Shown here: piece after piece, positions 39,052 through 63,565 of the stretch | How the letters are laid out: every line of letters starts with the position of its first letter | Numbering within the stretch: the stretch's first letter is position 1 | Source of the DNA: Candidatus Omnitrophota bacterium | GTDB lineage: Bacteria > Omnitrophota > Gorgyraeia > Duberdicusellales > 4484-171 | Direction of reading: 5' to 3' | Length of the DNA stretch: 64,000 nt | NCBI GenBank assembly: GCA_037146775.1 | Contig: JBAWWL010000002.1 | Coordinates: 262,554 to 326,553 of the forward strand | The notes under the pieces: model-generated | What the model saw: only the letters and a program-made list of their open reading frames with translations | What the model was told of the DNA's origin: nothing | The model's database searches: none | Made by a program: the position numbers and the translations under genes

Positions 39052-40023
39052 ATGGGGAAGCAAAAAGTCAAAAAAGTTTTAGTCTGCGGAGCGGGAGGGT
39101 TTATTGCAAGTCACTTGGTAAAAAGGCTGAAAAAAGAAGGGTTTTGGGTGAGAGGGGTGGATATAAAATACCCGGAATTTTCTAAAACGCACGCTGATGA
39201 ATTCTTACGTTTAGATTTGCGCGAGAAGAAAAATGCTGACAAAGCCTTAAAACTGAAGACAGGAAATTTTGATGATGTTTATCAGTTGGCCGCGGATATG
39301 GGTGGAATGGGATTTATTCATTCGGCAGAATGTGAAATTATGCGTAACAACGCATTTATAAACTTGAATATGATTGATTCTGCGTCTAAGAGTGGAATAA
39401 AACGCTATTTCTTTTCTTCTTCGGTCTGCATTTATCGGGATATGAAGATAGGCGAACCGGAGTTGACCGAAGAGCAAGCTTATCCGGCATTGCCAGATAA
39501 TGAATATGGCTGGGAGAAGCTTTATGCTGAGCGTACGGCGTTAACATATGGCAGGAAGTGTGGTTTTAAGGTGCGTATTGCCCGTTTTCAAAACTGCTAT
39601 GGCCCGGAAGGCACCTGGCAGGGAGGAAGAGAAAAAGCTCCGGCAGCCTTGTGTCGTAAAGTCGCCCAGGCGAAAGATGGCGGAACCGTTGAAGTGTGGG
39701 GTAATGGTACGGCTGTACGCTCTTATACTTATGTTGAGGATATGCTTGAAGGTATTAGGCGGCTAGTTGAGTCAGATTTAGAGGGGCCTACTAACATTGG
39801 TTCGCCAGAATATGTTTCGGTGAAGGAGCTGGTTGATACGGTAGCTAAAGTCTCCGGAAAAAAATTTACTATTAAATGGATAGAAGGGCCGGTTGGCGTG
39901 CAATCTAGGAATTTCAGCAATAAGAAAATCTATTCCACCGGTTGGCGTTCGAAGTTTTCTTTGGAAGAAGGAATTAGGCAAACTTATCTATGGATAGAGA
40001 AACAAGTGAAGGATAGTAGATAG
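39052..40023 (+). CDS. NAD-dependent epimerase/dehydratase family protein
   Basis: KVLVCGAGGFIASHLVKRL Rossmann motif; AGGAGAGGAG RBS upstream. Confidence 0.75.
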   Translation: MGKQKVKKVLVCGAGGFIASHLVKRLKKEGFWVRGVDIKYPEFSKTHADEFLRLDLREKKNADKALKLKTGNFDDVYQLAADMGGMGFIHSAECEIMRNNAFINLNMIDSASKSGIKRYFFSSSVCIYRDMKIGEPELTEEQAYPALPDNEYGWEKLYAERTALTYGRKCGFKVRIARFQNCYGPEGTWQGGREKAPAALCRKVAQAKDGGTVEVWGNGTAVRSYTYVEDMLEGIRRLVESDLEGPTNIGSPEYVSVKELVDTVAKVSGKKFTIKWIEGPVGVQSRNFSNKKIYSTGWRSKFSLEEGIRQTYLWIEKQVKDSR

Positions 40024-40345
40024 TCGTGAGTATGTAGTATTGAGTAGAGAGGGGAGGGGTCAAACCTCAAAACTAAAAACTAAAAATTAAAGTGATACCA
40101 AACGGTGACGGTCGCTCGCCTCGATTCGTTCGGCGAAGCGGGCGACGCTCGTTTCGGATTACGTATAAAGGCAACGTACATAGTATAGCGTATATAGTTA
40201 GGGAGAAAGTATGTAGTACAGAGTACATAGTATATCGTGGTGGCAGAAGAAAAATTTAAATATATTTTGTATACTCCGCTACATGCTATGTATGATATAC
40301 AACATACCATGGACGATATACGACATACAATAAAAACTTAAAAGT
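40024..40345. repeat. intergenic composite repeat (AGTAnnn arrays flanking a GC-rich core)
   Basis: Core CGCTCGCCTCGATTCGTTCGGCGAAGCGGGCGACGCTCGTTTCGGATTACGT at about 40115-40166 is about 90% identical to the cores at 56445-56500 and 57570-57625. Confidence 0.7.
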
Positions 40346-40708
40346 ATGCTAAAACACATCACAATCGGAATATTTATACCTTATTGCATCTTTTTATTCT
40401 TTTATATTAAAAATGGCTTTAGGGTGGATAGCAGAAAGTTGGCCAGATTACCGTTTCTTCTTTTATTGTGCGCCATTTGGAGTTTTATGCCAAGCATCTT
40501 AAGCAAACTGCATTTATGGCCGTTAAGTGCGATCGCTAATAACTTTTATATCAGCAATATTTTTTTCTTCTACGGAATATTACGTAAAATCGGTCATAGT
40601 GGTTCTACTTTCGGGTTGGGCGTGGTTCTATGTATCTTTTTTTCTCTCGCGATTATCTATGCGAGGTATTTACGAGCGCAGGAGCGAGAAATTAGCAATA
40701 GTATATAG
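40346..40708 (+). CDS. small membrane protein, paralogue of the N-terminal domain of the ORF at 41211..42389
   Basis: RKLARLPFLLLLCAIWSFMP...FFFYGIL...AIIYARYLRA aligns with KRLTARLLFVTVIFMMFCALWAVIP...FFFHGFL...AIYAMFFLM in the downstream gene; embedded in a repeat block, so coding status is uncertain. Confidence 0.3.
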   Translation: MLKHITIGIFIPYCIFLFFYIKNGFRVDSRKLARLPFLLLLCAIWSFMPSILSKLHLWPLSAIANNFYISNIFFFYGILRKIGHSGSTFGLGVVLCIFFSLAIIYARYLRAQEREISNSI

Positions 40709-40788
40709 TATGTCGTACATAGTACATAGGGGGCAGTACAGCATATATAGCATGTAGTATATAGTCGGGTAACAAGAAGGAAAAAAGA

Positions 40789-41151
40789 GTGGAAGAGAAG
40801 ATAAAAACTTTTAAGGATCTAAGAATCTGGCAAAAGGCGATGGAGATCGTTAAAGATATTTACCAGGTAACCAACTCTTTTCCAAAAGAAGAGCTTTATG
40901 GTTTAACATCCCAGATGCGAAGATGTGCGGTGTCTCTTGCTTCGAATATTGCCGAGGGTTTTAAGAGATATCACAATAAAGAGTACAAACAATTTCTACA
41001 TATTATGTTAGGATCTGCGGCTGAATTAGAAACGCAGCTACTAATATCAGAAGAACTTAGATACATTAACAAGGAAGAAACGGAAAAAATATGTGAGAAA
41101 TTAGAGCATCTTTCGAGGATGACCACAGTTCTTATCCGTAAGCTTAAGTAA
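40789..41151 (+). CDS. four-helix-bundle protein (23S rRNA intervening-sequence protein family)
   Basis: 120 aa; DLRIWQKAMEIVKDIYQVT...SQMRRCAVSLASNIAEGF is the family signature; GTG start with a GAAGGA RBS. Confidence 0.65.
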   Translation: MEEKIKTFKDLRIWQKAMEIVKDIYQVTNSFPKEELYGLTSQMRRCAVSLASNIAEGFKRYHNKEYKQFLHIMLGSAAELETQLLISEELRYINKEETEKICEKLEHLSRMTTVLIRKLK

Positions 41152-41210
41152 CTTTTCACTATATACGATATACTATTTACAATGTACATTTATAAAAGGA
41201 ATTAAATAAG

Positions 41211-42389
41211 ATGTCTTTACCATCAGCGCATGTAGCAGTGGGTATGGGGGTACCGTTTCTGGCGGGGTTAGCCAGATTTCTGGCGACAAAACGCCTAACA
41301 GCCAGGCTTTTGTTTGTTACGGTAATCTTTATGATGTTTTGTGCGCTCTGGGCGGTTATTCCTGATATACCGCAAATGCTGCCAAAAGAGTTTCAGCATT
41401 GGGAATCAAAAATTATGCATTCAGGTTATGCTGATGTATTTTTCTTCCACGGTTTTTTAGATGAGCACAATAGCGAGGATAGGGGCCTGCTTGAGGGAGC
41501 CATGGCAATATACGCCATGTTTTTTCTTATGCTCTTTGCTTCGGCTAAAACCGTGCGCGATAATCAGAAAAAAATAGATAGAATGAAAGGTAATCCTTCG
41601 TCACCTACGGTCTTGGATTCGCTTGAAAAGATGAGTCATAAAGACATGGTCGATATCCATTGCCATATATTGCCAGGAGTTGATGATGGCCCGGATACAA
41701 TAGAGGATTCGCTTGCGATGTGTAGAAGACTACATGAGTTGGGAGTGGTGCATATTGTGGCTACTCCGCATCTACCCTGGAGAGAAAAATATGAGGTAGA
41801 TAAAATAACTGCCGCGTATAATTTATTAAAAGATGCACTTGTAAAAGAGAATATTGCGATAGAGCTTTCTCTGGGCGCAGATATCAGGATAAGCTGGGAT
41901 TTGATAGAGAGGTTAAAAAATGGATCTCTGCTTACTTTAGCCAAGGGCCGATATTTTCTTTTAGAATTAGATGATTTCACTGTCCCGCCAGGATTAGAGG
42001 ATTTCATCAAACGTTGCAATAAGGAAGGTTTTTATCCGGTGCTTACACATCCGGAGAGAAATGTTTTATTTTGTTCAGATTATGAAAGAATAAGAAAGAT
42101 TGCACAACTCCCAGTATTAATCCAAATTAGTTCTTGCAGCTTGGTCGGTTCTTTAGGTGCTGCAGCGAAAAGAGCGGCTATGGATTGGCTTAAACTTGAT
42201 TTAGTAGATGTGATGGCTTCGGATGCGCATGCGGTGAATATGCGGTTAGAAGAATTTAATAAAGGTTTATTTGCGGCACAAAAGATCACAGACCGTAAGC
42301 GACTTGAGGATTTGGTCATTGCTACGCCTTCAGCTATCGTACAAAATAAGGAGATTGAAGTAATAAAGAGAAATATAAAAAGTACATAG
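41211..42389 (+). CDS. membrane-anchored CpsB/CapC-type PHP-family protein-tyrosine phosphatase
   Basis: C-terminal MVDIHCHILPGVDDGPDTIEDSLAMCRRL...VATPHL is the PHP metal-binding motif of CpsB-like phosphatases; N-terminal about 130 aa with 3-4 TM helices. Confidence 0.65.
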   Translation: MSLPSAHVAVGMGVPFLAGLARFLATKRLTARLLFVTVIFMMFCALWAVIPDIPQMLPKEFQHWESKIMHSGYADVFFFHGFLDEHNSEDRGLLEGAMAIYAMFFLMLFASAKTVRDNQKKIDRMKGNPSSPTVLDSLEKMSHKDMVDIHCHILPGVDDGPDTIEDSLAMCRRLHELGVVHIVATPHLPWREKYEVDKITAAYNLLKDALVKENIAIELSLGADIRISWDLIERLKNGSLLTLAKGRYFLLELDDFTVPPGLEDFIKRCNKEGFYPVLTHPERNVLFCSDYERIRKIAQLPVLIQISSCSLVGSLGAAAKRAAMDWLKLDLVDVMASDAHAVNMRLEEFNKGLFAAQKITDRKRLEDLVIATPSAIVQNKEIEVIKRNIKST

Positions 42390-42519
42390 TATGTCGTACA
42401 TTGTACATAGTACAAATAAACCCTAAACACTAAACTCTAAATCCTAAATAAATTCAAAATCACAAACTAGAAATTTCAAACTTAAAACAAGATTATTGCA
42501 TATTGGAGGTAGTAAATAT
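42390..42519. repeat. intergenic repeat block (AGTAnnn then YYCTAAA 7-mer arrays)
   Basis: tacatagtatgtcgtacattgtacatagtacaaataaaccctaaacactaaactctaaatcctaaataaattcaaaatcacaaac. Confidence 0.65.
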
Positions 42520-43399: not shown

Positions 43400-43431
43400 G
43401 TTTTTTGAATACTCCTGACTCGGCTGAATAT

Positions 43432-43493: not shown

Positions 43494-43680
43494 AACCTCG
43501 TCGGAGTAATCTTTGGCGCATCAATCTCTCGGTTGTTCCTGGAATGTTCTGCTGGGTTACCCCACAGGGTGCCCTGGTGAGTTGAGGGCCGAGGATCTAT
43601 GCGCGTCGATTAAAATAAATCTGCGAGAAGCTGCTAAATAGGGAACTAATTTCCTACCAGAAGAGTCTAATTTGTATAGT

Positions 43681-43990
43681 ACATAGTCGTGAGTATTATA
43701 TAGGTTAATAGGTTATTATGTTGATATGTTGATAGGCTATTTAATAAGGGGCTATTAGAAAAGTGGTAAAAAAGGGACAGGAAGGGGTGGAAAGGGTTAG
43801 GAAGGGGAGGGAAGATTAACGAATTAAATAATTAAAGAATTAACGGATTAAGATATTAACGAACTAACGAATTAAGAGATTAACGAATGAACTGATTAAG
43901 ATAAAAAAGGAAAAAATTAAATATCAAAAACATTCCGTTAATCGTTGAACGGTGGCGATGCTCGTTTCGGTTGCGTTAATCGTCAATCGG
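43681..43990. repeat. intergenic repeat block (AGTAnnn, ATAGGTTG, GGAAGGG and 12 ATTAAnnn units, then a partial GC core)
   Basis: 8-nt period ATTAA+NNN repeated 12 times at about 43807-43900; GGCGATGCTCGTTTCGGTTGCGTT at about 43954. Confidence 0.7.
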
Positions 43991-44145
43991 CTTTATTTTT
44001 TATGATATTTATGACTCAACCGTTATACGCGGGACGATACGAGCCGCGCCTGCCTCGCCGGCAAGGCGGGTAACCGCTCAACGCATAACGAGGTATTTTT
44101 CATAAACACTTGTCTATCAATCGATTATATAAAATATTACTTAAA

Positions 44146-50130: not shown

Positions 50131-50850
50131 ATGAAACAAACGATACAGTCCGCGCTTATTTGGGCGATGAGCATCACCCTGACCTTTTTATTGTTTTTGG
50201 CAATGGCATTTTTTTCAATCATTCTTTATCCTTTTGACCGAAAGCGTAAAATCGCGCACGCCCAATGTTATTGGTGGTCTGATTTTCTATCGGCTTTTAA
50301 TCCTTATTGGAAGGTGACAGTGAGCGGCCTTGAAAATATCGATCATCATAAGATATACGTGGTGGTGTCAAACCATCAGAGCCTCGCTGATATTATCTTG
50401 ATGTACCAAACGAAAATGCAGTTTAAGTGGGTAGCCAAGGAGAGTCTTTTTAAAATTCCGATTTTGGGATGGAATATGATGCTGGCCAAACACATTCGGC
50501 TTAGGCGGGGAGATTTTTCCAGCATCAAGAAAACCTACCGGGAAGCCGGACAGTGGTTGCGTGACGGCATATCGGTAGTATTTTTTCCGGAAGGGACCAG
50601 AAGCAATATTGATGAGATGGGAGCTTTCCAGAATGGAGCATTCAAGCTTGCCATAAAAGAGAAAGTACCGATTTTACCTGTGATGATAGAGGGAACCAGA
50701 AACGCTATTCCCAAAGGAAGCTGGCGTTTTACTAACAAAAGTTCCTGCGCCGTAAGAGTGTTGGCCCCGATAGAAACCACTGGTTTTCTTCCCGGGGATT
50801 TTGCCCGCTTAAGGGATTTGACCAGGAATCAACTTGGGGGCATAAAATAG
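50131..50850 (+). CDS. 1-acyl-sn-glycerol-3-phosphate acyltransferase family (PlsC-like LPLAT)
   Basis: VVVSNHQSLADI (HX4D block) and FFPEGTRS. Confidence 0.7.
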   Translation: MKQTIQSALIWAMSITLTFLLFLAMAFFSIILYPFDRKRKIAHAQCYWWSDFLSAFNPYWKVTVSGLENIDHHKIYVVVSNHQSLADIILMYQTKMQFKWVAKESLFKIPILGWNMMLAKHIRLRRGDFSSIKKTYREAGQWLRDGISVVFFPEGTRSNIDEMGAFQNGAFKLAIKEKVPILPVMIEGTRNAIPKGSWRFTNKSSCAVRVLAPIETTGFLPGDFARLRDLTRNQLGGIK

Positions 50851-51120
50851 TACATAGTACAAATAAACTCTAAACTCTAAATCCTAAATAAACTCAAAAC
50901 GAAAAACTCAAAATTATAAATAATACTGTTTTGAGTTTGGAATATTTGGGTTTAGGATTTGTTTAGGGTTTAGGATCTCGGGTTTAGAGTTTGTCATAAA
51001 ACGTTGCCGATAGACGTAACCGTTTTCCGAGCCCCAACTATCTACTATGTACTACATACTCAATACTACATACTTTCTCCATATACTCAATACTCACGGC
51101 TATATACGACATACTATTCC
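50848..51120 (-). repeat. composite palindromic repeat element, reverse orientation (copy C)
   Basis: 50992-51021 is the exact reverse complement of 57613-57642 (30/30); the terminal arm at 51040-51115 is about 95% identical to the reverse complement of 57483-57550. Confidence 0.8.
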
Positions 51121-51121
51121 A

Positions 51122-51150
51122 TTGACAGATTTAAAATAGGGTGTATAATG
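51122..51150 (+). promoter_or_regulatory. near-consensus sigma-70 promoter (TTGACA-17-TATAAT) upstream of the csp gene
   Basis: TTGACA at 51122-51127 and TATAAT at 51145-51150. Confidence 0.6.
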
Positions 51151-51180
51151 ACGCCAATACGTTAAGGGAGTTAACTTAAG

Positions 51181-51219
51181 CCGCAAGGTAAAAGAAGAAC
51201 TTACCGAGCGGTTTTTTCC
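51181..51219 (+). terminator. intrinsic-terminator-like hairpin plus T6 inside the csp leader
   Basis: CCGCaaGGTAA...TTACCgaGCGG followed by TTTTTT (51212-51217); about 60 nt after the predicted TSS and 120 nt before the csp ATG. Confidence 0.5.
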
Positions 51220-51342
51220 TTTTTATGGGCTGTATTGTTAACAAAAGGAGGGTGATAGCCAAGAAAAAAAGAGTTTTGTAGGGTAAAAGTAGTAGTTTAG
51301 TAGTTTGTAGTCGGGCTTAAATGCCCCTAAAGGAGATTTGAC

Positions 51343-51546
51343 ATGCATACAGGAAAAATTAAAAAGTTAGTAAGAGAAAGAGGTTTTGGATTTATTAGCG
51401 ATACAGACGGTAGTGAAGTGTTTTTCCACCAGAGCAGCCTTGCTGATGTACAGTTTGGCTCTTTACAGGAAGACCAACAGGTTACTTTTGAAGTCGAGAA
51501 ATCGCCTAAAGGCCCTCGCGCTATCAATGTAAGTCTCGCGAAATAA
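51343..51546 (+). CDS. cold-shock protein (CspA family)
   Basis: GKIKKLVRERGFGFI (RNP1) and VFFHQS (RNP2); 67 aa. Confidence 0.85.
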   Translation: MHTGKIKKLVRERGFGFISDTDGSEVFFHQSSLADVQFGSLQEDQQVTFEVEKSPKGPRAINVSLAK

Positions 51547-51624
51547 CGTTGCACCCCTTTTGTAGGGAAAGTAAAGGGTGGTACGTAGCTGCAGAAAATC
51601 TTGCCTGTCTAAGACAAAAATACG

Positions 51625-53067
51625 ATGACATATAAACATGCTCTGTTTTTGAACCCGTATTTTGCTAAGTCTGCTACCAGCGCAATGAAGTTTTTTCCAC
51701 CCACCGGCCTTGAGTACGTAGCTACTAGCGCCAAAGAGTATGCGGATAAAGTAACGCTGCTCGATTTGCGCTATGAAAAAGAATTTTCCAAGGCCGACGT
51801 CCTTTTAGATTTTATAAAACATCAGATAGATATCGTCTGTGTTGGCATCGGATGGGATCGCCAGCTGGATGAAATCTGTAGTTTTTTAAACCGTGTACCC
51901 GAGGGTATACCTTTGGTTGTCGGCGGTTATACGGCAACAGAAAAAGTCGAAGAACTTTTTAAGGCTGCTCCGCGCATTAATATCATTGTCCGCGGAGAGG
52001 GCGAAGAGACAATCCGCGACATACTCAAAGGATATCCCCTTAAAGACATTTTAGGCATTTCGTACCGGGCCAACGGCAACATAGTTCATAACAAGAACCG
52101 GCCCCTGCCTGATGTGGATGAGCTTACTTATCCGGATCGTTCTTTGCGTAATAATAAATACCGTATGACCTTAAATGGCGTTAATATCGCTAATTTAAGT
52201 TTTGATACGGTTTTAAGCGCCCGGGGTTGTCCGTATAATTGCAAGTTTTGTACTTTTAGCGTCAATCCCTTAGGCCAGAAAAGGACCTATTCGGCCCGGA
52301 GCGCGGTTTCTGTTGCGGATGAAATCGCCGGAATAGACGCCAATATAATTCTTTTTAGCGACGAGAATTTTGCGGTTGACCCAAAAAGAGCGGAAGAGAT
52401 CTGTGATTTAATTATTGAGCGTAAATTGAAAAAACGTTTCGCGGCGCAGGTGCGCTTGGATATCGCCAAGTACCCGGTGTTACTTGGAAAAATGGTTAAA
52501 GCCGGGTTTAAGGCGCTGCTTATTGGAATAGAGTCTCCGCATGACTGGATACTTACGCAATTGAACAAAGGTTTTGATTCGCAGACAGTGAGAAAATCTT
52601 TCGCGATACTCACAAAGTACCCGATGTTTTATCACGGCTATTTTATCTATGGCAATATAGGAGAAACCGAGCAAGAAATGTTGTATATTCCCGAGTTCGC
52701 AAAAGAGATAGGAGTCGATTCTATTACCTGTTTGAAGTTAAGGATAGAGAAGTTTTCTCCGCTTCGGGAGCTCGCCCTGCGTACTCCCGGTTACCATGTT
52801 ACGGAGAGAGGAGAGCTTTATTCCGACACTTATGGATACCCTGCTTTAAAAAAGATAGGCAGAAAAATAAAATTTTCTTTTTATACTCCGCAGCGTTTTA
52901 TGAAGTTACTTTCCAAAACTGTTACCATACATTTTTTTAGCCTTAAGGAAGTAGCGCTTTTTCTGTGCGGAGTTCCGTTGATACTTAAGAATGTTATTGT
53001 CAGAGATATACAAAGAGGCCGCCTTAAAGATTCTTTAGCCCGCATTTTTGTCAACAGTAAGCGATAG
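51625..53067 (+). CDS. B12-binding-domain radical SAM protein
   Basis: SARGCPYNCKFC is a Cx3Cx2C motif; a Rossmann-like N-terminal domain precedes it. Confidence 0.65.
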   Translation: MTYKHALFLNPYFAKSATSAMKFFPPTGLEYVATSAKEYADKVTLLDLRYEKEFSKADVLLDFIKHQIDIVCVGIGWDRQLDEICSFLNRVPEGIPLVVGGYTATEKVEELFKAAPRINIIVRGEGEETIRDILKGYPLKDILGISYRANGNIVHNKNRPLPDVDELTYPDRSLRNNKYRMTLNGVNIANLSFDTVLSARGCPYNCKFCTFSVNPLGQKRTYSARSAVSVADEIAGIDANIILFSDENFAVDPKRAEEICDLIIERKLKKRFAAQVRLDIAKYPVLLGKMVKAGFKALLIGIESPHDWILTQLNKGFDSQTVRKSFAILTKYPMFYHGYFIYGNIGETEQEMLYIPEFAKEIGVDSITCLKLRIEKFSPLRELALRTPGYHVTERGELYSDTYGYPALKKIGRKIKFSFYTPQRFMKLLSKTVTIHFFSLKEVALFLCGVPLILKNVIVRDIQRGRLKDSLARIFVNSKR

Positions 53068-54934: not shown

Positions 54935-55120
54935 AGAGTAGTATATAGTATAGAGTACATAGTAGGGGGAAAAATTAACGAATTAAATAATTAAAGAATT
55001 AACGGATTAAAGAAGAAAGGGGCAGGAAGGAAAAAGAAAAGTAAAAAGTTAAAAGGCAAAAGTAAAAAAGTATAAATTAAGATAGGGAAAAATTAAAAGT
55101 AAAAAACAAGGAGGATTATT
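54935..55120. repeat. intergenic repeat block (AGTAnnn, ATTAAnnn, purine-rich AAAAGTn)
   Basis: gagtagagagtagtatatagtatagagtacatagta...attaacgaattaaataattaaagaattaacggattaaag... Confidence 0.65.
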
Positions 55121-56380
55121 ATGGAGAGTAAAAGAGTTTCGCAAACAAGTTTCGATGGCCTTGGGATAGCGCCGAAAATCTTAGAGGTTTTGGATCATCT
55201 TAAGTTTACCGTTCCTACGCCAATCCAGCATAAGGCGATCCCGGCAGCTATCGAAGGTAAGGATATTATCGGCGTTGCTCAGACAGGTACCGGCAAAACG
55301 CTGGCTTTTGCTATTCCTGCTATTCAGCGTCTGATTCAGGGCAAGGGCTGTTGTCTTGTGTTGGTGCCTACGCGAGAGCTCGCTATACAAGTTGATAAAA
55401 CATTTCAAAAATTTTCTTTTCCGTTTAATATTAAGACCGCGGTTATTATCGGTGGAGCTTCTATGTATGCCCAGATACAGGCGATTAGGCGTAACCCCAG
55501 AGTTTTGATTGCGACCCCGGGGCGGTTGATTGATCATATTGGCCAGCGCACAGTGTCTTTGCATGACGTAAGTGTTTTGGTGCTTGATGAAGCGGACCGA
55601 ATGCTGGACATGGGGTTCTTGCCGCAAATTGAGGAAATCTTGCGTTTGGTTCCTAAAAATAGGCAGACTATGCTTTTCTCGGCAACCATACCTAGCGATG
55701 TTATCAAAATAGCTACCGGTCAGATGAGGCTTCCTATCTATGTAGAGATCGCGCCCTCCGGCACTATGGCAGATAATATTACCCAGGAATTGTTTATTGT
55801 TAAAAGAGACGCAAAAAGGCAGTTGCTTGAAAAATTACTGGGCCAATATCACGGCTCGGTTTTGCTTTTTGTTCAAACTAAAATCGGCGCGCGTAAGATT
55901 ACGCAATTCTTGCGTGAAAAAAATCACCATGCCGCAGAAATTCATTCCGATAGGTCACTTTTTCAGCGTCGTGAGGCGTTGGAAGGTTTTAAGTCGGGCA
56001 AGTACCGGATACTGGTAGCTACCGATATTGCCGCGCGTGGAATCGATGTTATCGGCATAGAGATTGTCATGAACTATGATATTCCGCAAGACGCAAATAA
56101 CTACGTGCATCGGATTGGCCGCACCGGAAGAGCCGGGCATGAAGGCCGGGCAATTTCATTTGCGACACCTGACCAGGGGATGGATGTGCGCGATATCGAA
56201 AAACTTGTCAAGACAACCTTGCCTGTCCGTCAGCATCCGGATTTTCCTAGTGAAAGCTTCTCTTCTCATTCGGCACATTCAGGAGACAGGCGTTCCGGTT
56301 CGGGTCGATATGGCCGTAAAGCGTGGCGTTATTCAAACAGCAGCCGTCGTTCGGGCTCATCGTTTCGGGGGAGCCGTTAA
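55121..56380 (+). CDS. DEAD-box ATP-dependent RNA helicase
   Basis: Q-motif, AQTGTGKT, DEAD, SAT, HRIGRTGRAG; R/S/G-rich C-terminal tail. Confidence 0.85.
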   Translation: MESKRVSQTSFDGLGIAPKILEVLDHLKFTVPTPIQHKAIPAAIEGKDIIGVAQTGTGKTLAFAIPAIQRLIQGKGCCLVLVPTRELAIQVDKTFQKFSFPFNIKTAVIIGGASMYAQIQAIRRNPRVLIATPGRLIDHIGQRTVSLHDVSVLVLDEADRMLDMGFLPQIEEILRLVPKNRQTMLFSATIPSDVIKIATGQMRLPIYVEIAPSGTMADNITQELFIVKRDAKRQLLEKLLGQYHGSVLLFVQTKIGARKITQFLREKNHHAAEIHSDRSLFQRREALEGFKSGKYRILVATDIAARGIDVIGIEIVMNYDIPQDANNYVHRIGRTGRAGHEGRAISFATPDQGMDVRDIEKLVKTTLPVRQHPDFPSESFSSHSAHSGDRRSGSGRYGRKAWRYSNSSRRSGSSFRGSR

Positions 56381-56690
56381 GGATAGTACAGAGTACAGCG
56401 TACATAGTACATCGTGGGGCGTGGGGCAAGATTCGTTAAGCGGTTACTCGCCTCAGCTTTTGCTTCAGCGAAGTGGGCGAAACTCGTTTCGGTTACGTCT
56501 AACGGCTTATGATAAACTCTAAATCCGAAACCCTAAACTCTAAACAAATCCTAAACCCAAATATTCCAAACTCAAAACAGTATCGTTTTGAGTTTTGAGT
56601 TTTTCGTTTTGAGTTTATTTAGGGTTTCAAGTTTAGTGTTTAGAGTTTATTTGTATTGTATAAGACATACTGTATATAGCAATGTCACTA
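56381..56690 (+). repeat. composite palindromic repeat element, forward orientation (copy A)
   Basis: Order: AGTAnnn array, GC-rich core, YYCTAAA array, central hairpin CAAAACagtatcGTTTTG, TTTAGRR array, reverse AGTAnnn-type arm; the 31-bp GGGCAAGATTCGTTAAGCGGTTACTCGCCTC is identical to 57549-57579. Confidence 0.8.
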
Positions 56691-56801
56691 TACTTCAAAA
56701 CAAAAATCATTCTTCTAAAATTCTTAAATAGGAAAGTTCTTTCCTTAAAATTTCTGCAAAAAATAACGAATCCTTTAAAATTACATATCCAGGGCTATAC
56801 C

Positions 56802-57485
56802 ATGGAAGATCTGATAAAGAAATACGCGCCCGGAAAATCATTCGTTGATATCGGATCGTTATGGGCCATAAACGGGTATTTTTCTTTTCTTGCAGAAAGT
56901 TGCGGCGCGCGACGTGTGATTGCAGTAGATATCTTAACTGAAACTGAAGAATTCAGGCAGGCAAAACGACAAAAAAATTCCAAGGTTGAATTTATCTGTG
57001 GCGATATCCATCTTCCGGAGACAACTCAAAAAATCGGCACCTGCGATGTGGTGTTTTGCTCCGGCGTCCTTTACCACAGCCCAAACCCGCTACATCTAAT
57101 AATGATGCTACGCTCAATATGTCGAGAAACGCTGATATTAAAAACCCAACTGATTCCCGAAGTGCCGGGAATAAAAAACGCTGCGGTTTTCTATCCTTTT
57201 CTCGATAAAAAACAAAGAAAGCTTTACGATAGGGGGGCAGGTATCCAGAAAGCTATCACCGAAGACTACGATCCTAAAAGCGGATATGGAAATTGGTTTT
57301 GGGGGCCTTCCCCAAGTTGCGTGAAGTCAATGCTTGAGTGTGCGGGCTTTACGATTGAAAAAAGCTATCTCAACCCTTTTCACGGCTGTTTTATTTGCAA
57401 AACCGCTCCTGTTAAGTTTATGCCGGTATCTGGAGAGCTTGCGCCGGACTATAACCAACCAAAGCCTTACAAACACAGTCAATAG
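56802..57485 (+). CDS. hypothetical protein, class I methyltransferase-like
   Basis: FVDIGSLWAINGYF...RRVIAVD...FCSGVLYH resemble methyltransferase motifs I-III; ATG at 56802; the ORF-track start at 56682 lies inside a repeat element. Confidence 0.35.
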   Translation: MEDLIKKYAPGKSFVDIGSLWAINGYFSFLAESCGARRVIAVDILTETEEFRQAKRQKNSKVEFICGDIHLPETTQKIGTCDVVFCSGVLYHSPNPLHLIMMLRSICRETLILKTQLIPEVPGIKNAAVFYPFLDKKQRKLYDRGAGIQKAITEDYDPKSGYGNWFWGPSPSCVKSMLECAGFTIEKSYLNPFHGCFICKTAPVKFMPVSGELAPDYNQPKPYKHSQ

Positions 57486-57815
57486 TATATAGTCGTGAGT
57501 ATTGAGTATATGGAGAAAGTATGTAGTATTGAGTATATAGTACATAGTAGGGCAAGATTCGTTAAGCGGTTACTCGCCTCGATTCGCTCGGCGAAGTGGG
57601 CGAAACTCGTTTCGGTTACGTCTATCGGCAACGTTTTATGACAAACTCTAAACCCGAAATCCTAAACCCTAAACAAACTATAAATCACAATTCTTCAAAC
57701 TCAAAACGGTATAGTTTGTGATTTTGAGCTTTTCGTTTTGAGTTTATTTAGGATTTAGAGTTTAGTGTTTAGGGTTTATTTATACTATATACAATATACG
57801 ACATACCACATACTT
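57483..57815 (+). repeat. composite palindromic repeat element, forward orientation (copy B)
   Basis: Same module order as copy A; starts at the TAG stop of the upstream gene. Confidence 0.8.
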
Positions 57816-57957
57816 TTTTAAGTTTTACTCACATAAAATCCTTGCTATGGAATAATTAAAAAACTATAATACCATAAATAAGCCTAGGGCCACATACGCT
57901 GTCCGGAAAAAAAATCTATAAAAGCTGAAGGTAATATTGAGTTTATTGGGAGGCTAG

Positions 57958-58764
57958 ATGAACTATTTACAAGGGGCGATCGCTGCGGCAAAAAGAGCCG
58001 GGAAGATCCATAAGAAATATTTTCGTAAAGGCGTTGCCGTAAAAACAAAATCTTCTTCTTACGATTTGGTAACGACAGCCGATACAGAGGCCGAAATAGA
58101 GGTTGTTTCTTTCCTGAAGAAACATTGGCCGGATCACAATTTTATCTGCGAGGAACATCTGTACCAGGAAACCCCCTCCGAATACATCTGGATCATTGAC
58201 CCGCTTGATGGGACTAATAATTTTGCCTGCGGTATTGCCCTATTTTCCGTTTCTATTGCGCTTAAATACCGTAATGAGCTTCTTTTGGGCGTTGTCTACG
58301 ACACTATTAATAATGAGCTTTTTTATGCCCAAAAAAACAAAGGAGCATTCTTGAATAACAAGCGTATCCGTGTGAATGATGTATCTCACCTGAAACAGGC
58401 TATGTTGATTACCGGATTCTATTACGATAGAGGAAGAGAGATGATAAAAACTCTTGTGGCGGTCAAGCGGTTTCTTTCTTTGCATGTGCTTGGGATACGC
58501 CGTTTTGGTTCGGCGGCGCTTGATCTCTGTTATGTTGCCTGTGGCCGCGCCGCGGGATTCTGGGAATTCGAGCTTAGTCCGTGGGATTTCGCTGCGGGAA
58601 AGTTATTGGTTGAAGAAGCCGGCGGCAAAGTCACCGACAACAAGGGCAAAGTCGTTCCCTTAACTAAAAAACATTTTATTGTTGCTTCTAACGGTCAGAT
58701 TGACCGGCAGTTGCTTGAAGTTATAGAGCCGAAGCACTCTCGGATAAAAAAATCAGGAATATAA
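57958..58764 (+). CDS. inositol monophosphatase family protein
   Basis: WIIDPLDGTNNF plus upstream EE...D metal-binding motifs. Confidence 0.8.
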   Translation: MNYLQGAIAAAKRAGKIHKKYFRKGVAVKTKSSSYDLVTTADTEAEIEVVSFLKKHWPDHNFICEEHLYQETPSEYIWIIDPLDGTNNFACGIALFSVSIALKYRNELLLGVVYDTINNELFYAQKNKGAFLNNKRIRVNDVSHLKQAMLITGFYYDRGREMIKTLVAVKRFLSLHVLGIRRFGSAALDLCYVACGRAAGFWEFELSPWDFAAGKLLVEEAGGKVTDNKGKVVPLTKKHFIVASNGQIDRQLLEVIEPKHSRIKKSGI

Positions 58765-58785
58765 GACTGTGGAGTTTCGGGAATA

Positions 58786-60165
58786 ATGAGATTATTTTCT
58801 AAAAAAATCACCGCATTGGCGCGCGAAAGCTGGGCGATGAGCTGGCCCATGATTTTGATCATGTTTTTTGAATTTCTGATAGGCTTGGCCGATGTCTACG
58901 TTGCGGGCAAGGTCGGTAAAGAAATACAAGCCGCCTATGGTCTGGCTTTTCAACTTTATTTTGTCGGGCTCATTCCTGCCATGGCTTTAACCGCAGGAAC
59001 GGTTTCGGTGGTGTCAAAATTGTTTACTGCTCCGCAAGCTCTAAAGCCGTCCGAGCATGATGCTGTTATTGGGGAGAACGAGGAATTAAAAGAAACAGTA
59101 TTTTCTTCTCTCGCATCAAGCACTCTTATGGGTGTTATCGTGGGCGCTCTCGTTATTATGCTCAGTTCGGCGATCATAGGGTTATTGCGCGTTCCCGCAA
59201 TTATTAAAAACGATAGCGCCGCACTTGTAAGAATTTATAGCCTGGGATTTATTTTCGATTATTTTTTGATCAACGCAAACGGTATTTTGCGCGCGTGTGG
59301 TAAGGTTAAGATATCGCTGCGTAATTATACAATAATATGTCTTTTAAATATTGTACTTAATTTTGTTCTTGTGTTTGCCACCCCGCTTGGATTTAGCGGT
59401 ATCGCCATTGCTACCGTAATCAGCGTGGCCGTCGGCGCGCTTTTAAATGCCGTGGCGGTTAAGAATCTTTTGGGTGCGTGGCGATTTCGTTTCCGGGCAT
59501 TCAAAGAAATGGTCGCAATCGGCTGGCCGATCGGGCTCTTGCAGATTCTCTGGAATCTTGCGACTGTTGTTATTTTTTCCATTCTAGGGAGTTTACCGTC
59601 GAATAATATAGAATTGATCGCCGCTTTTACTAACGGTTTAAAAGTCGAAGCCGCTATTTTCCTCCCCGCGTTCGCGTTTAACTTAGCGAATGCCGTTGTT
59701 GTCGGGAATCTTCTGGGTAAAGGGAAGAAGGACGATGCTTTCAAGTCCGGACTCGTTACCGCCGGCTTAGGTATGGCAATCATTGTGGTGCTTTCATTGG
59801 TTGTGATATTACAAGCGCGTAATATTATGACTTTTCTTTCCAATAATTCCATAGTCGTTAGTCAGGGGTTTACCTATCTTTATATTACCTTTGCTTTTGA
59901 GCCGTTTATGGCCTGGGGAGTTATTCTTGCCGGAGGATTAGCCGGAGCCGGCCACACTAAAAATATTTTAGCGGTTGTTGCGCTAAGTTTATGGATCATA
60001 AAAATACCGTTTTGTTACCTTGCGGGAGTTGTGTGGGGCATGGGCGCGGTAGGTATGTGGTGGGCGATGAATTTGGCAATTGTCTTTCAGGCTGTCTTGA
60101 TGAGCTGGTACTATTTTAAAAAAATGCGGCCAGTGGCAAAAGTAATACAGGTATGTAGTACATAG
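58786..60165 (+). CDS. MATE/MOP-superfamily membrane transporter
   Basis: 459 aa with about 12 TM helices as two 6-TM halves. Confidence 0.5.
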   Translation: MRLFSKKITALARESWAMSWPMILIMFFEFLIGLADVYVAGKVGKEIQAAYGLAFQLYFVGLIPAMALTAGTVSVVSKLFTAPQALKPSEHDAVIGENEELKETVFSSLASSTLMGVIVGALVIMLSSAIIGLLRVPAIIKNDSAALVRIYSLGFIFDYFLINANGILRACGKVKISLRNYTIICLLNIVLNFVLVFATPLGFSGIAIATVISVAVGALLNAVAVKNLLGAWRFRFRAFKEMVAIGWPIGLLQILWNLATVVIFSILGSLPSNNIELIAAFTNGLKVEAAIFLPAFAFNLANAVVVGNLLGKGKKDDAFKSGLVTAGLGMAIIVVLSLVVILQARNIMTFLSNNSIVVSQGFTYLYITFAFEPFMAWGVILAGGLAGAGHTKNILAVVALSLWIIKIPFCYLAGVVWGMGAVGMWWAMNLAIVFQAVLMSWYYFKKMRPVAKVIQVCST

Positions 60166-60465
60166 TATGTAGTATATAGTGGGGAGTAAGGATTAACGGA
60201 TTAAAGAATTAAATGATTAACTAATTAAGAAATTAACGCATTAAATAATTAACGAGCTAACGGATTAAGAAATTAACTAATTAAAGAATTATTTGGGGAA
60301 AGAATATAGGTTGATAGGTTAGTATGTTGATAGGTTAGTAGGCAGGAAGGGTCAGAAAAATAAAATATTAAAAATTAAAATAAAAATAAGGGGTAGAAAA
60401 GGACAGAAAGGGAAGAGAAGGGAAAAAGTTAAAAGTCAAAAGTAAAAAACTGAAAAATAAACGCT
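60166..60465. repeat. intergenic repeat block (AGTAnnn, ATTAAnnn, GGTTGATAGGTTAGTA, GGA-rich, AAAAGTn)
   Basis: AAAAGTT AAAAGTC AAAAGTA AAAAACT GAAAAAT at 60421-60455. Confidence 0.65.
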
Positions 60466-60975
60466 ATGGGTTTTTTTAATTTTTTTAAAAGTTTTATCGG
60501 GCGAAAGAAAAAGAAAAAACTAAAAAAAAGGAAGAAAATAACGCCCAGAAAGCCGGCTAAAACCAAGAAAAAGCCGCGCCGCCGGGTTCTCCCGCGTATC
60601 AAGAAAACGCACAAATCAAAACCCGCAAAGGTGCGCACAAAAAGTAAAGTAAGGGCTCGTAAGAAGAGGGGAGCGCCCAAGCGAAAAAAGTTTAAAGTTT
60701 CAGCCAAAAAATCCCTGCCGATTTCCAATGAAAAAGCAATTGGTACGATTACTCATTTTTTTGGCCACATATCCGTAGGGATCATTAAACTTTCTTCGCC
60801 GCTGGCGACAGGTGCCACCATACATATTAAAGGCTCCCACGATGATTTTACCCAAGTGGTTTCTTCGATGCAGTACGACCATCGGGATATTACTTATGCC
60901 AAGCGAGGATTGGAGATTGGTATTAAGGTTATTAAGCCGGTTCACGAGAACGATATAGTCTATATGGTTGGTTGA
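60466..60975 (+). CDS. lysine-rich (histone H1-like tail) protein with C-terminal small beta-barrel domain
   Basis: Residues 10-90 are about 55% K/R (KKKKKLKKRKKITPRKPAKTKKKPRRR...); the C-terminal 75 aa GTITHFFGHISVGIIKLSSPLATGATIHIKG...EIGIKV looks like an EF-Tu domain-2-like barrel. Confidence 0.45.
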   Translation: MGFFNFFKSFIGRKKKKKLKKRKKITPRKPAKTKKKPRRRVLPRIKKTHKSKPAKVRTKSKVRARKKRGAPKRKKFKVSAKKSLPISNEKAIGTITHFFGHISVGIIKLSSPLATGATIHIKGSHDDFTQVVSSMQYDHRDITYAKRGLEIGIKVIKPVHENDIVYMVG

Positions 60976-61053
60976 TGACCAATAGTTTTGTGGAAGTCGT
61001 GATATGGGGTGGAAGATTCTTAAACTGTATGTGTTTCGAGCGAGCATGATTCT

Positions 61054-62052
61054 ATGACACGCTATTATCTTGATATCGATAATCGTTTTGTAATCAAAAA
61101 AGATAGACAGAAGCTTTATCCCCGAGGAAAGTTTGTTATCGATACACAAAACAAGTTATCGTATATCATCTTGGAGCCTATTTCTTGGCGCAGAAAAGAA
61201 ACAGTATCTAAAAAAATAACTTTTGAAGGCACGTGGTCTTTAGACGAGAATCATACTGTTGTATTTACTTTACATCACACACGCAAACAGCCAGAAGGCG
61301 GGCAATTTTATTTTACGTCGGAATTGATTGATACACGTTCCGACGCGCTCATTTTCTCGTTAGCCACAAAAGAGCAGCCTGGAGTGTCTACTATTCGGCT
61401 TTTACAATTACAAGGGAGATGGCAGGCCGATCAATATAACCGCTTAAGTTTTCTGGTCAAAAAAACCGGTTTGCAATATGATACGCTCACTTTTGCAGCT
61501 GCCTGGGAATTGGACAGGAACAACACGCTTGTTTATACCTACAAGAAGACGTATCTTAAGACAAAAGAGCGCATAGAGAAAACGTTAGTTTTTAAAGGAT
61601 TCTGGCAGATTGGCGAGAAGGATCGTCTTTGTTACGCCCTTGATATCGAACAAAATTCATATTTTTCTTTTAAGGTTGCCTACGAGACTCCGAGCATACT
61701 GGCGAAAAAAGGTGAGATTAAGTATCGCTTGGGTGTGGGGGTTAGAGGGGAACGTTTATTCCGTGCGAAAGTTATTACTATTTACGGTGTATGGAAGTTA
61801 AGCAGAAAGATAGGATTGTCTTTCGAGGTCGACTACGGTCATGGAGTTCGGGAAATCGTCTTTGGCGCGCAGCTCGAGTTAGTTAAAGGAAACCAGGTTA
61901 CTTTTGAATTGACCAGCCAAGAAGGAAACAGCCTGGGCTTGCGCATTACGTTTAGCAAGTCTTTTCTGCGTAATAACGCTCAATGGTTTTTGCGCTTTAG
62001 CCAGCGGGACAAAGAATCTCGTGTTGAGGGTGGGGTAGATATTGCATGGTAG
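61054..62052 (+). CDS. hypothetical protein with about five internal 45-50-aa beta-rich repeats
   Basis: Recurrent h-x-G-x-W-x-L/I-x4-6-L-x-F/Y blocks: TFEGTWSLDENHTVVFTL, TFAAAWELDRNNTLVYTY, VFKGFWQIGEKDRLCYAL, TIYGVWKLSRKIGLSFEV. Confidence 0.4.
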   Translation: MTRYYLDIDNRFVIKKDRQKLYPRGKFVIDTQNKLSYIILEPISWRRKETVSKKITFEGTWSLDENHTVVFTLHHTRKQPEGGQFYFTSELIDTRSDALIFSLATKEQPGVSTIRLLQLQGRWQADQYNRLSFLVKKTGLQYDTLTFAAAWELDRNNTLVYTYKKTYLKTKERIEKTLVFKGFWQIGEKDRLCYALDIEQNSYFSFKVAYETPSILAKKGEIKYRLGVGVRGERLFRAKVITIYGVWKLSRKIGLSFEVDYGHGVREIVFGAQLELVKGNQVTFELTSQEGNSLGLRITFSKSFLRNNAQWFLRFSQRDKESRVEGGVDIAW

Positions 62053-62186
62053 AAGGGATTAAAGAATTAACGAATTAACTAATTAAAGAATTATTTGGGG
62101 AAAGAATATAGGTTGATAGGTTGGCATGTTGATAGGTTAGTAGGCTAAAGAATTAACTGATTAATGGATTAACCGATTAACGAATT
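62053..62186. repeat. intergenic repeat block (ATTAAnnn, GGTTGATAGGTT modules)
   Basis: attaaagaattaacgaattaactaattaaagaattatttggggaaagaatataggttgataggttggcatgttgataggttagtaggc is nearly identical to 60268-60340. Confidence 0.7.
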
Positions 62187-62795
62187 ATGGCTGATAATAT
62201 TATTTGCGAAAAATTTAAAGAGTGGACGAAGGATCTTGCGCCTAAAGAAGCCAGGATAGCTGTGTTTGAGCGTATACGTGATATTCCGTACGCAATCGTG
62301 CCGAAGCTAAGAGATCATTTTTCCGGCCCGGCTGGTATGTTGGAATTGAATAAAGGTTCGTGCCAACCGAAGCATTACTTATTAGCGCAATTTTTTGAAA
62401 AGTTAGGTATACCTATTCAATTGGCCACTTACGTTTTTAGATGGCAGGATTGCCCCGTAGCCTATCCATCTAAAATTAAACAATTAGTAGAACAGTTGCC
62501 TGTGGGGTATCATCTTGCTTGTAAGGCTTACATAGAGAAAAAGTGGGTCTTAGTTGATGCGACCTGGGATAAACCTCTTAAAGCATATGGTTTTAGTGTG
62601 AATGAGCATTGGGATGGTTTAAGCGCTACCGAGAATGCTGTGGTAGTTTTGGAAGAAATTACGCACAAGGATGCGGCAGATAGATGTAGCTACGAAACAC
62701 AGAAAAGAAGTGGTTATAGTGATAACGAAAAAGCATTGTATACTGAATTTATCGAACAATTTAATCAGTGGCTGGAGCAGATAAGGCGAAGCTAA
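62187..62795 (+). CDS. transglutaminase-like (papain-fold Cys-His-Asp) domain protein
   Basis: GSCQPKHYLLAQ (Cys), YHLACKAY (His), VLVDATWD (Asp), in the canonical order and spacing. Confidence 0.5.
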   Translation: MADNIICEKFKEWTKDLAPKEARIAVFERIRDIPYAIVPKLRDHFSGPAGMLELNKGSCQPKHYLLAQFFEKLGIPIQLATYVFRWQDCPVAYPSKIKQLVEQLPVGYHLACKAYIEKKWVLVDATWDKPLKAYGFSVNEHWDGLSATENAVVVLEEITHKDAADRCSYETQKRSGYSDNEKALYTEFIEQFNQWLEQIRRS

Positions 62796-63214
62796 TGTAT
62801 GTAGTATATAGTCGTGAGTATTGAGTATATGGAGAAAGTAGGTAGTATTGAGTACTGAGTATATAGGTGGGTTAGAAATGGGTAAAAAGGTTGGTATGTT
62901 GATAGGCTAAAGAATTAACGGATTAAAAAATTAAATCATTAAATAATTAACGAATTAACTGATTAATGAATTAACGCATTAAAGAATTAACTAATTATTG
63001 GGGGGAAAGGATATAGGTTGATAGGTTGGCATGTTGATAGGTTAGTAGGCAGGAAGGGATGAGACATTAACGGATTAAAAAATTAAATAATTAACGGATT
63101 ATTTGGGGAAAGGGGAGTAGGGGAAAGAGAAAAGTAAAAAGTTAAAAATAAAAAGGCAAAAATAGAAATCAAAATAGAGAAATATCAAAAATTAAAAAGA
63201 GAAGGAGGCAGATT
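62796..63214. repeat. intergenic repeat block (AGTAnnn, ATTAAnnn x2, GGTTGATAGGTT x2, purine-rich)
   Basis: Third copy of ...GGAAAGgATATAGGTTGATAGGTTGGCATGTTGATAGGTTAGTAGGCAGGAAGGG..., also at 60300-60350 and 62100-62150. Confidence 0.7.
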
Positions 63215-63556
63215 ATGCAGAGATTTTTATTAAAATGGGCAGTTAACTCGGTTGCGATTCTTGTTGTCGTTCATACGATAAAAGGTATTGAGATTTCAAA
63301 CACATCGCTTGTGGTGGTAGTGGCTCTGGTATTGGGGATCATCAACGCATTCCTAAGGCCTATTTTGATCGCGATCACGCTACCGATAAACGTGCTTACC
63401 CTTGGCGTGTTTACTTTTTTTATTAACGGATTTCTTTTCTATCTGGTTTCCAAAATCGTAAAGGGTTTTACCGTTACCGGATTTTGGCCGGCATGTTTTG
63501 GGGCAATTCTCTTTAGTATCGTTAGCTTTCTTTTGAGTTTATTTGTACGCGAGTAG
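63215..63556 (+). CDS. phage-holin-family 4-TM membrane protein (YvlD/DUF360-like)
   Basis: 113 aa with four hydrophobic helices and a LGIINAFLRPIL motif; AGGAGG RBS. Confidence 0.45.
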   Translation: MQRFLLKWAVNSVAILVVVHTIKGIEISNTSLVVVVALVLGIINAFLRPILIAITLPINVLTLGVFTFFINGFLFYLVSKIVKGFTVTGFWPACFGAILFSIVSFLLSLFVRE

Positions 63557-63565
63557 TATCTAAAG

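Follow-up and report, generated by a model that had tools for sequence, protein, structure and literature searches.

Nested inverted heptamer arrays in the spacers of an Omnitrophota genome have outer arms that resemble those of S23p cassettes

Introduction

What kind of element fills the spacers between unrelated bacterial genes with palindromes built of seven-nucleotide repeats? The question is raised by a stretch of 64,000 nt from a Candidatus Omnitrophota metagenome-assembled genome (MAG), which we call the window and in which all genes lie on the + strand. Here a composite palindromic element occurs in at least six copies in about 66 kb, in both orientations and with 81-100% identity. A sequence-only reading of the window had described the element as a miniature inverted-repeat transposable element (MITE), or as a mobile module bearing a structured RNA, that lands next to stop codons. 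We propose instead that the units are nested members, without an open reading frame (ORF), of the type of cassette that 23S rRNA intervening sequences (IVSs) and S23p genes exemplify, and that RNase III would cut them in transcripts. Arguing from analogy with IVSs, we give this proposal about an even chance.

IVSs and the very common S23p genes (PF05635, Avd-like) have been known for more than 30 years, and we know of no agreed function or mobility route for them. In Coxiella, the 23S rRNA IVS, described as a selfish element, is 428 nt long and contains an S23p ORF (Warrier et al. 2016, PMC4990558). It carries tandem heptameric repeats whose number varies between strains, and it is excised by RNase III, the 5' cut falling where the first repeat starts (PMC4990558). 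Older proposals cited in the same paper regard IVSs as remnants of transposition or as mobile elements.

A family of composite repeat units

Each full unit consists of two nested inverted pairs of period-7 arrays and an optional GC-rich core. On the outside, a left arm, (AGTAnnn)n, is matched by a right arm of reverse-complementary sequence, and the arms range from 2 to about 10 heptamer units. The inner pair, (YYCTAAA)n-apex-(TTTAGRR)n, forms a hairpin of about 140 nt. The core, about 90 nt long, sits between the left arm and this inner hairpin. We label the copies A, B, C, D (rearranged), E (core only), F (past the end of the window) and H (half copy). Copies A, B, D and F carry the core at full length, C has a shortened version and E consists of the core by itself. 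The modules recombine independently: arm, core and inner hairpin can each be found singly or otherwise combined.

Copies A (56381..56690) and B (57483..57815), both on the + strand, are complete and core-bearing. Copy A reads, in order, left AGTAnnn arm (~56383-56417), G-run, GC-rich core (56424-56512), CTAAA-type array (56513-56567), apex hairpin (56568-56595), GTTTTGA/TTTAG-type arrays (56596-56650) and inverted arm (56651-56690). In copy B, the left arm (57483-57549) has the layout array-GAGAAAGT-array and contains the TAG stop of the upstream gene. It is followed by the core (57550-57641), a CTAAA array (57642-57699), the apex (57700-57735), a TTTAG array (57736-57780) and the inverted right arm (57781-57815), which contains ATATACGACATAC. 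The two copies had been read as sharing their module order and long identical stretches, and indeed they have 170 nt in common at 81% identity (family D12). Both of the identical stretches named for them are there, the exact 31-mer GGGCAAGATTCGTTAAGCGGTTACTCGCCTC (56424-56454 in A, 57550-57580 in B) and the exact 34-mer GCGAAGTGGGCGAAACTCGTTTCGGTTACGTCTA. The apex hairpin CAAAAC-n6-GTTTTG, ascribed to A and B alike, is perfect in A but not in the other copies.

Copy C (50848..51120, - strand) is inverted relative to A and B, as the sequence-only reading had it. A short AGTA arm (50847-50863) leads into a CTAAA array (50864-50912), the apex (50913-50945), a TTTAG array (50946-50993), the reverse complement of a shortened core (50994-51035) and a long arm (51036-51118), which is the reverse complement of a B-type left arm. 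Positions 50847-51022 are 86% complementary to 57613-57788 in B over 176 nt, including the 30/30 reverse-complement match of 50992-51021 to 57613-57642 that had been claimed and that we read directly from the sequence. The distal arm of C was said to resemble the proximal arm of B, and it does: 51042-51107 and 57485-57550 are 97% complementary over 66 nt. The claim that another, shorter segment replaces the core of C is right about the length, but the segment is a shortened version of the same core and not unrelated sequence. The centre of C is closest to A (50864-51005 versus 56501-56642, 142 nt, 89% complementary). Copy C is thus a mosaic, with B-like arms and an A-like centre, which argues for exchange between copies.

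The remaining copies are rearranged or incomplete. Copy D (40012..40335, +) consists of an AGTA arm (40012-40050), a G-run with a CTCAAAACTAAAA array (40051-40092), a full-length core (40095-40178), a second AGTA array with GAGAAAGT (40176-40238) and an inverted arm with ATATACGACATAC (40270-40335). Half copy H (42377..42482, -) has an AGTA arm, a CTAAA array and part of the apex; its 106 nt are 86% complementary to 57713-57818, and it stops where the ribosome-binding region of the next gene starts (GGAGG at ~42505, ATG at 42520). Further copies of the core had been noticed, and a core pattern finds three matches where none is expected, among them 40133-40157. Copy E (~43935..44005, +) is such a core, diverged, which retains GGCGAnnCTCGTTTCGGTTGCGT and CGGCTTTATTTTTTATGA and is without the inner TCGCC...GGCGA stretch, the arms and the CTAAA/TTTAG hairpin.

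The sixth copy, F, lies about 1.2 kb past the end of the window, behind a TPR gene. It is found on a contig of another assembly (L125, GCA_964613555.1) that equals window positions 57538-64000 at 99.9% and extends 1.5 kb beyond. Copy F (L125:7696-7978) is inverted and core-bearing, and its distal arm differs from that of B. The interiors of B (57483-57815) and F match without a difference for about 250 nt; the two copies are mutually inverted and about 7.7 kb apart. To judge by its sequence, this pair could mediate inversion of the six intervening genes. The interval has the same orientation in both assemblies. With F included, three copies (C, H and F) are oriented oppositely to A and B.

A multiple alignment joins the copies in a single family. 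What had been called a dispersed palindromic repeat family in both orientations is therefore just that, with copies that are 81-100% identical and mosaic. Folded as RNA, whole units have z scores of -6.0 (A, minimum free energy (MFE) -93.3 kcal/mol), -6.2 (B), -4.9 (C) and -3.6 (D, the copy at 40 kb), and the arm duplexes of B and C have z scores of -4.3 and -6.9. These folds and duplexes give the units one feature of IVSs, a long stem formed by pairing of the terminal inverted repeats. A further common feature is that the termini are tandem heptameric repeats.

Outer arms shared with S23p cassettes

The window holds an ORF-bearing relative of the units. Its gene (40789-41151, +) encodes an S23p, or 23S rRNA intervening-sequence, protein of the four-helix-bundle kind (PF05635, E 3.5e-40). 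The cassette as a whole (40698..41190, +) has AGTAnnn arrays in front of the gene (40698-40769) and an inverted array behind it (41156-41190), and these arrays belong to the same repeat families (D5, D13, D19) as the arms of A, B and D.

Related cassettes tie the units to S23p more closely. Genes that are 76-78% identical to the S23p gene of the window occur in two other assemblies, at locus L256 (GCA_964445715.1) and at loci L258-260 (Logan ERR78500xx), where (C/A)GTATAT units precede the gene and their complement follows it. The left arms of the units and the S23p left arm of L258 have one layout in common, array-GAGAAAGT-array-GGGG. Copies B, C and D each have the 12-mer TATACGACATAC in their right arm. 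Among 265 loci it recurs in the S23p right arms of L256/L257 and L258-260, plus L125, which is copy B, and nowhere else. A 13-mer with at most one mismatch has 10 matches in the window against 0.06 expected. Judged by these shared sequences, the outer arms of the units are homologous to the arms of S23p cassettes.

The units themselves carry no S23p ORF: blastx gives E >= 0.5 for A, B, C, D, F and H. IVSs without an ORF exist in Salmonella and Campylobacter, so the missing gene does not exclude kinship. The cassette of L256 fits exactly between the stop of a PAS gene and the start of a CheR gene. We tried to fix its exact boundary from relatives and gave this up, as these are at most 62% identical and have a Fic gene at the junction in one case and overlapping genes in another. 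A search with S23p paralogues for more of the same genome was likewise abandoned, since its matches belonged to other genomes.

Inverted heptamer arrays at S23p genes

Does the link hold for S23p genes in general? We retrieved six independent S23p loci by protein or synteny and not by their repeats: the window, L256, L258, L261, L262 and L264. All six have inverted period-7 arrays on both flanks. The arrays read CGTTACA/TGTAACG in L261 and CAGTTGC/GCAACTG in L262, both viral contigs found by protein pattern, and nnTGCGn/CGCAnnn in L264 (2850-3320), found by synteny; the other two loci span L256:5975-6410 and L258:715-1245. The flanks pair with z scores of -4.1 to -13.3 in eight of ten cassettes tested, and more weakly in L258 (-1.9) and in the cassette of the window.

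Approached from the other side, through heptamer patterns, loci L006, L035, L083, L102, L106 and the viral L194 also have an S23p homologue adjoining the arrays. Array-flanked S23p genes span several phyla and viral contigs, and the heptamer is specific to each lineage. On this sequence comparison, S23p loci are marked in general by inverted heptamer arrays, and the six out of six make this a hallmark that is simple to search for. Our literature search found no paper that ties S23p genes in general to inverted heptamer arrays, which is no proof of novelty.

The AGTAnnn heptamer is itself widespread. Scanning public genome contigs for five consecutive units yields at least 120 loci, mostly near-exact heptamer arrays. 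The matches listed come from cyanobacteria, Bacteroidota, Acidobacteriota and others; among them none is labelled Omnitrophota and none has the composite element.

The inner hairpin in phage contigs

The inner hairpin also leads beyond this genome. A 21-nt pattern of its TTTAG side matches six IMG/VR contigs, which look like one phage because the same sequence surrounds the match. Phage L132 (11 kb, 45-57% GC per kilobase and mostly above 50%, with portal and major-head PHROG matches) carries palindromes of CTAAA array, apex and TTTAG array at 5925-6040, 7385-7520, 8465-8575 and 9040-9185, in consecutive spacers of co-directional structural genes. An alignment of about 120 nt links these palindromes to A, B, C and F, and two of the palindromes have about 100 identical nt in common. 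As it occurs in another replicon of very different base composition, the inner hairpin is a module of its own.

A scan of viral contigs for four TTTAG units returned mostly telomere-like or simple arrays, and palindromic heptamer arrays in L223 only. L223 has at least three palindromes of the form (GGCTAAA)n-conserved loop-(TTTAGCC)n. In L176 (3900-3960) and L255, both with 59-60% GC, a (TTTAGAG)n array reaches directly to a start codon. Searching GenBank phages and PLSDB plasmids with blastn gave no match.

Position next to stop codons

The units were said to land next to stop codons. They do lie there: between 38 and 64 kb, AGTAnnn arrays are at most 8 nt from a stop codon, or overlap it, at 12 of 23 gene ends, and in eight of these 12 the gene's own TAG is inside the array. 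As a diagnostic trait the adjacency fails, because any insertion in the tiny spacers of a compact genome would look alike. The idea that the arrays supply stops in all three frames did not fit consistently and was dropped.

Landing sites of this kind suit a classical MITE, that is, a non-autonomous element with terminal inverted repeats and a transposase acting in trans, for which the sites at stop codons would be tolerated insertions. The units are indeed small, non-coding, AT-rich, palindromic and multi-copy, have terminal inverted repeats, occur in both orientations and include truncated copies. The identity of B and F over about 250 nt points to recent copying, and the TAG stops lie within the first arm units, as though the insertion had supplied them. 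However, direct reading of the flanks of A, B and C and of the right end of F reveals no target-site duplication. Arms of 2 to about 10 units, and modules that are found singly or recombined, do not amount to fixed termini. A scan of 20 proteins from 39 to 62 kb shows no transposase family; just one ORF-bearing element has the same arms, and its product is S23p. Hence one part of the MITE description stands, that the units have the termini of an ORF-bearing element (40698-41190), while target-site duplication, fixed termini and, in the region scanned, a transposase partner all fall away. We consider a classical MITE improbable.

Possible hairpins between messages

Alternatively, the units may serve their host. 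They could be domesticated hairpins similar to repetitive extragenic palindromes (REPs) and bacterial interspersed mosaic elements (BIMEs), 3' stem-loops that terminate transcription or block 3' exonucleases and so insulate transcription units, their likeness to S23p arms being incidental. Some gene pairs that are tightly coupled are free of arrays: OEP-HlyD and AbiEii-helix-turn-helix, which overlap, and HlyD-MacB, which are 5 nt apart. Promoter-like sequence is found downstream of each of A, B and C. The best is a sigma-70-type match 2 nt after copy C (51122..51149, +, TTGACA-16-TATAAT, 12/12). Behind B the distance is 27 nt (57842..57870, +, TTGCTA-17-TATAAT, 10/12), and this site is 88 nt upstream of the inositol monophosphatase gene. 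As a class such sites are not enriched in the region (52 found, 44.6 expected). The context made by the array-free pairs and the promoter-like sequences is compatible with our proposal of IVS-type units that would be cut in transcripts and so mark message boundaries.

The region after copy C (51122-51625) consists of the perfect promoter match, a leader of about 475 nt and then a gene for a B12-binding radical SAM protein. No riboswitch was detected in this leader, the first 180 nt of which fold with a z score of -0.4.

Besides the promoters, the host-serving explanation can draw on the long hairpins (z -4.9 to -6.2), on the apex of A, which scores as terminator-like, on a TTTTTT behind the right arm of B and on the four inner hairpins between phage structural genes. 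Yet the U-tract is inconsistent, with none in A, C and D, and D and H continue directly into the next start codon. Truncated and rearranged copies, stems that are AT- and GU-rich with many mismatches, and folding without strand bias fit it poorly as well. It is, in our view, about as improbable as the MITE. A REP/BIME-like hairpin and an IVS-type cassette are not mutually exclusive.

The GC-rich core

Could function reside in the core, with the palindrome serving as carrier of a small structured RNA or of a short peptide gene? The sequence-only reading had proposed a structured RNA, from a core that varies in the centre and is constant at its flanks. The pattern of variation is as described: the flanks are identical in A, B and F, and the differences are concentrated in a central stretch. 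The structured RNA itself finds no support in Rfam, folding or covariation. Rfam has no match at gathering score anywhere in the 64 kb, and at E<=1 it returns a spurious match to a miRNA hairpin and none in the core. Compared with shuffles, the core alone folds with z scores of -0.1 to -1.4, no better on either strand. Among three distinct core sequences there is one compensatory pair, and the invariant 3' half CTCGTTTCGG stands opposite a varying 5' partner (GAAAC, GACGC, GATGC) without compensation. Moreover, the core occurs in both orientations relative to genes and is shortened or absent in some copies.

A peptide gene fares little better. One reading frame is open across the core in A and B/F, and the A/B indels of 3 and 6 nt preserve it, but in D a stop and a 1-nt insertion disrupt this frame, and E is without it. 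Nor is the core a remnant of S23p (blastx against S23p proteins, E >= 0.5). A functional core is thus very unlikely.

Outside this lineage we find no core in the collections searched. It has no match in public genome contigs, one chance match in metagenome contigs, inside a GC-rich PAS-domain gene, and one unrelated match in viral contigs. In the public genome, metagenome and viral contigs searched, the core therefore appears so far to be private to this lineage. Most likely it is a passenger module.

Setting of the repeats in the window

The repeats begin abruptly. Positions 1-38000 form a compact single-strand gene cluster of lower GC (33-41%) with zero heptamer arrays, and arrays set in at 38.79 kb. 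Past 38.7 kb, degenerate tandem 7- and 8-mers fill most of the spacers that separate unrelated genes. Three AGTAnnn units with at most one mismatch have 41 matches in the window against 0.24 expected, all beyond 38.7 kb. A tRNA-derived origin was considered and rejected: ARAGORN finds no tRNA or tmRNA gene in the whole window.

The units are non-coding and lie between genes that are mutually unrelated (helicase, methyltransferase, inositol monophosphatase, acyltransferase, radical SAM, TPR), so they are not a segmental duplication. A local duplication or an assembly artefact, as might be suspected from known copies that all lie within about 26 kb of one contig and from a core seen in no other genome or metagenome searched, is extremely improbable given these unrelated flanks, the inverted and mosaic copies, two independent assemblies that agree at 99.9-100% and break in repeats, and the homologous arms and inner hairpins in other genomes and phage. 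The sequence is backed by the short-read assembly GCA_964613555.1 (99.9% identical over 6.5 kb) and by Logan contigs; the short-read contigs of both end inside repeats.

The next-best relatives of the DEAD-box helicase gene (55121-56380) in front of copy A are 71-74% identical and carry Omnitrophota/Omnitrophica names. Their loci have spacers of a few to about 120 bp with none of these arrays. Since these nearest relatives are so distant in the helicase and are not syntenic, an empty-site comparison for the spacers of the window is not possible.

A second kind of spacer in the same region is not palindromic. It is found at 54935-55120, 60166-60465, 62053-62186, 62796-63214 and in parts of 43264-43905, and its sense strand is nearly free of C (3-7%, against 18% in coding DNA). 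Its arrays follow a fixed order: AGTAnnn, GGGG, ATTAAnnn 8-mers, GGGG, ATAGGTTG 8-mers, GGAAGGG, AAAAGTn, GGAGG, start codon. Copies are up to 93% alike over 86 nt, and the 300-nt spacer 60166-60465 has an MFE of just -25.8 kcal/mol.

Three neighbours deserve mention. Within a 945-bp spacer, 43400-43665 folds with a z score of -3.8 (-92.7 kcal/mol) and has no Rfam match; on this prediction it may be an undescribed structured RNA. A 169-aa protein (60466-60975) has an N-terminal half that is almost all Lys and Arg and no Pfam match, a composition with which it may bind nucleic acids. At 44209-45449, a gene for an AbiEii-type nucleotidyltransferase toxin overlaps a helix-turn-helix gene, with long repeat-rich spacers on its borders. 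The two gene products look like a likely toxin-antitoxin pair.

Discussion

To explain the units, we propose that they belong to the IVS/S23p cassette type, in which two arrays of a 7-nt repeat, inverted relative to each other, bracket a cargo. In the units the cargo is the optional GC-rich core and the inner inverted-array hairpin instead of S23p. Such units would spread by copy-and-paste into short spacers behind stop codons, in either orientation, and would afterwards exchange segments among copies by recombination. When a host gene is transcribed, the arrays would pair into an imperfect duplex of 30-70 bp. By analogy with IVSs, RNase III would cut this duplex and so separate the upstream message from the following sequence, with a stem left at its 3' end.

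Several points weigh against this proposal. RNase III cleavage is carried over to the units from IVSs purely by analogy. The outer arms of A pair weakly (duplex z -0.2), as do the flanks of the window's own S23p cassette (-1.0). The two strands of the units fold about equally well, which gives no hint that the transcribed strand is under selection. IVSs sit in helices of 23S rRNA, whereas the copies all lie between protein-coding genes, and Rfam finds no rRNA in the window. Because we found no S23p gene with CTAAA/TTTAG arms, the tie of the inner hairpin to the cassette type is one of architecture only. Truncated H and rearranged D suggest decay rather than a maintained function. We saw neither a target-site duplication nor an empty site, and the view of this genome extends over about 66 kb.

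What does the repeat family add? It bridges the termini of IVS/S23p elements, intergenic heptamer arrays and the intergenic hairpins of phage. The same termini surround an S23p gene and a non-coding cargo side by side, and they do so in mRNA spacers rather than in rRNA. This offers a possible origin for some of the intergenic heptamer repeats of cyanobacteria, Bacteroidota and others. It also makes several questions testable: whether RNase III cuts the stems in mRNA, whether S23p binds the heptamers and whether the cassettes are polymorphic in presence and absence. For annotation there is a practical side: because the repeats both disrupt short-read assemblies and run across stop codons, gene calls in MAGs of this kind are affected.

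We can go one step further and suggest, tentatively and as a rather doubtful generalization, that inverted lineage-specific heptamer arrays, with or without an S23p gene, form one widespread and unrecognized class of mobile cassette, of which 23S rRNA IVSs would be the members that landed in rRNA. If this were true, members would colonize the spacers of protein genes and the genomes of phage, shed or exchange their cargo and become nested within one another, like the units of the window. The class might account for part of the unexplained intergenic heptamer arrays, similar to short tandemly repeated repetitive (STRR) sequences, in many phyla. The pentameric S23p would then bind heptamer arrays and act in mobility or in the control of RNase III processing.

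Comparison with known systems

How do the units compare with what is known? The RNase III hairpins in phage T7 mRNA are imperfect hairpins between co-directional genes, much as the inner hairpin lies in four such spacers of L132. T7 sites are single-copy and are not known to be built from tandem heptamers or to be related in sequence to the units.

The STRR arrays of cyanobacteria and the TAACTGA arrays (PMC4679880) share with the units intergenic tandem 7-nt repeats close to gene ends and a patchy phylogenetic spread that suggests horizontal transfer. TAACTGA direct repeats occur in Beggiatoaceae, cyanobacteria and Bacteroidetes (MacGregor 2015, PMC4679880), and AGTA-type heptamer arrays are common in the same phyla. 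Most STRR/TAACTGA arrays repeat a single exact heptamer in direct orientation, immediately before a start codon. In contrast, the units of the window are degenerate, paired in inverted orientation, nested and tied to S23p, and their arrays follow stop codons (at the 12 of 23 gene ends).

Like REP/BIME in enterobacteria and BOX in pneumococcus, the units are intergenic, modular and mosaic, and the number and combination of their modules vary. Both they and the units can fold into hairpins in a transcript, and both occur where transcription units end. Their sequences are unrelated, the modules of the units being degenerate arrays of period 7 and period 8, and a general scan of the 20 proteins named above found no RAYT-type partner among them.

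The MITEs of Neisseria (Correia/NEMIS) are closer in form. They too are short, non-coding, palindromic and multi-copy, lie near genes in both orientations and have termini in common with a larger ORF-bearing element. RNase III is reported to act on Correia transcripts. Unlike them, the units have no target-site duplication, their termini are degenerate 7-mer arrays of variable length and their partner has no transposase.

The closest likeness is to the IVSs, which are regarded as selfish elements. The units differ from them in lying between protein-coding genes, in their many copies per 26 kb and in a cargo that is a second inverted-array hairpin with a core; processing by RNase III has been demonstrated for IVSs and is inferred for the units. 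The 23S rRNA IVSs with an S23p ORF, in Coxiella burnetii and also in Leptospira (PMC4990558), have in common with the units a cargo within terminal inverted repeats that form a long stem, and tandem heptameric repeats of variable number at the termini. In these IVSs the full-length cargo is an S23p (PF05635) ORF, and just such a cassette, with arms homologous to those of the units, lies in the window beside them.

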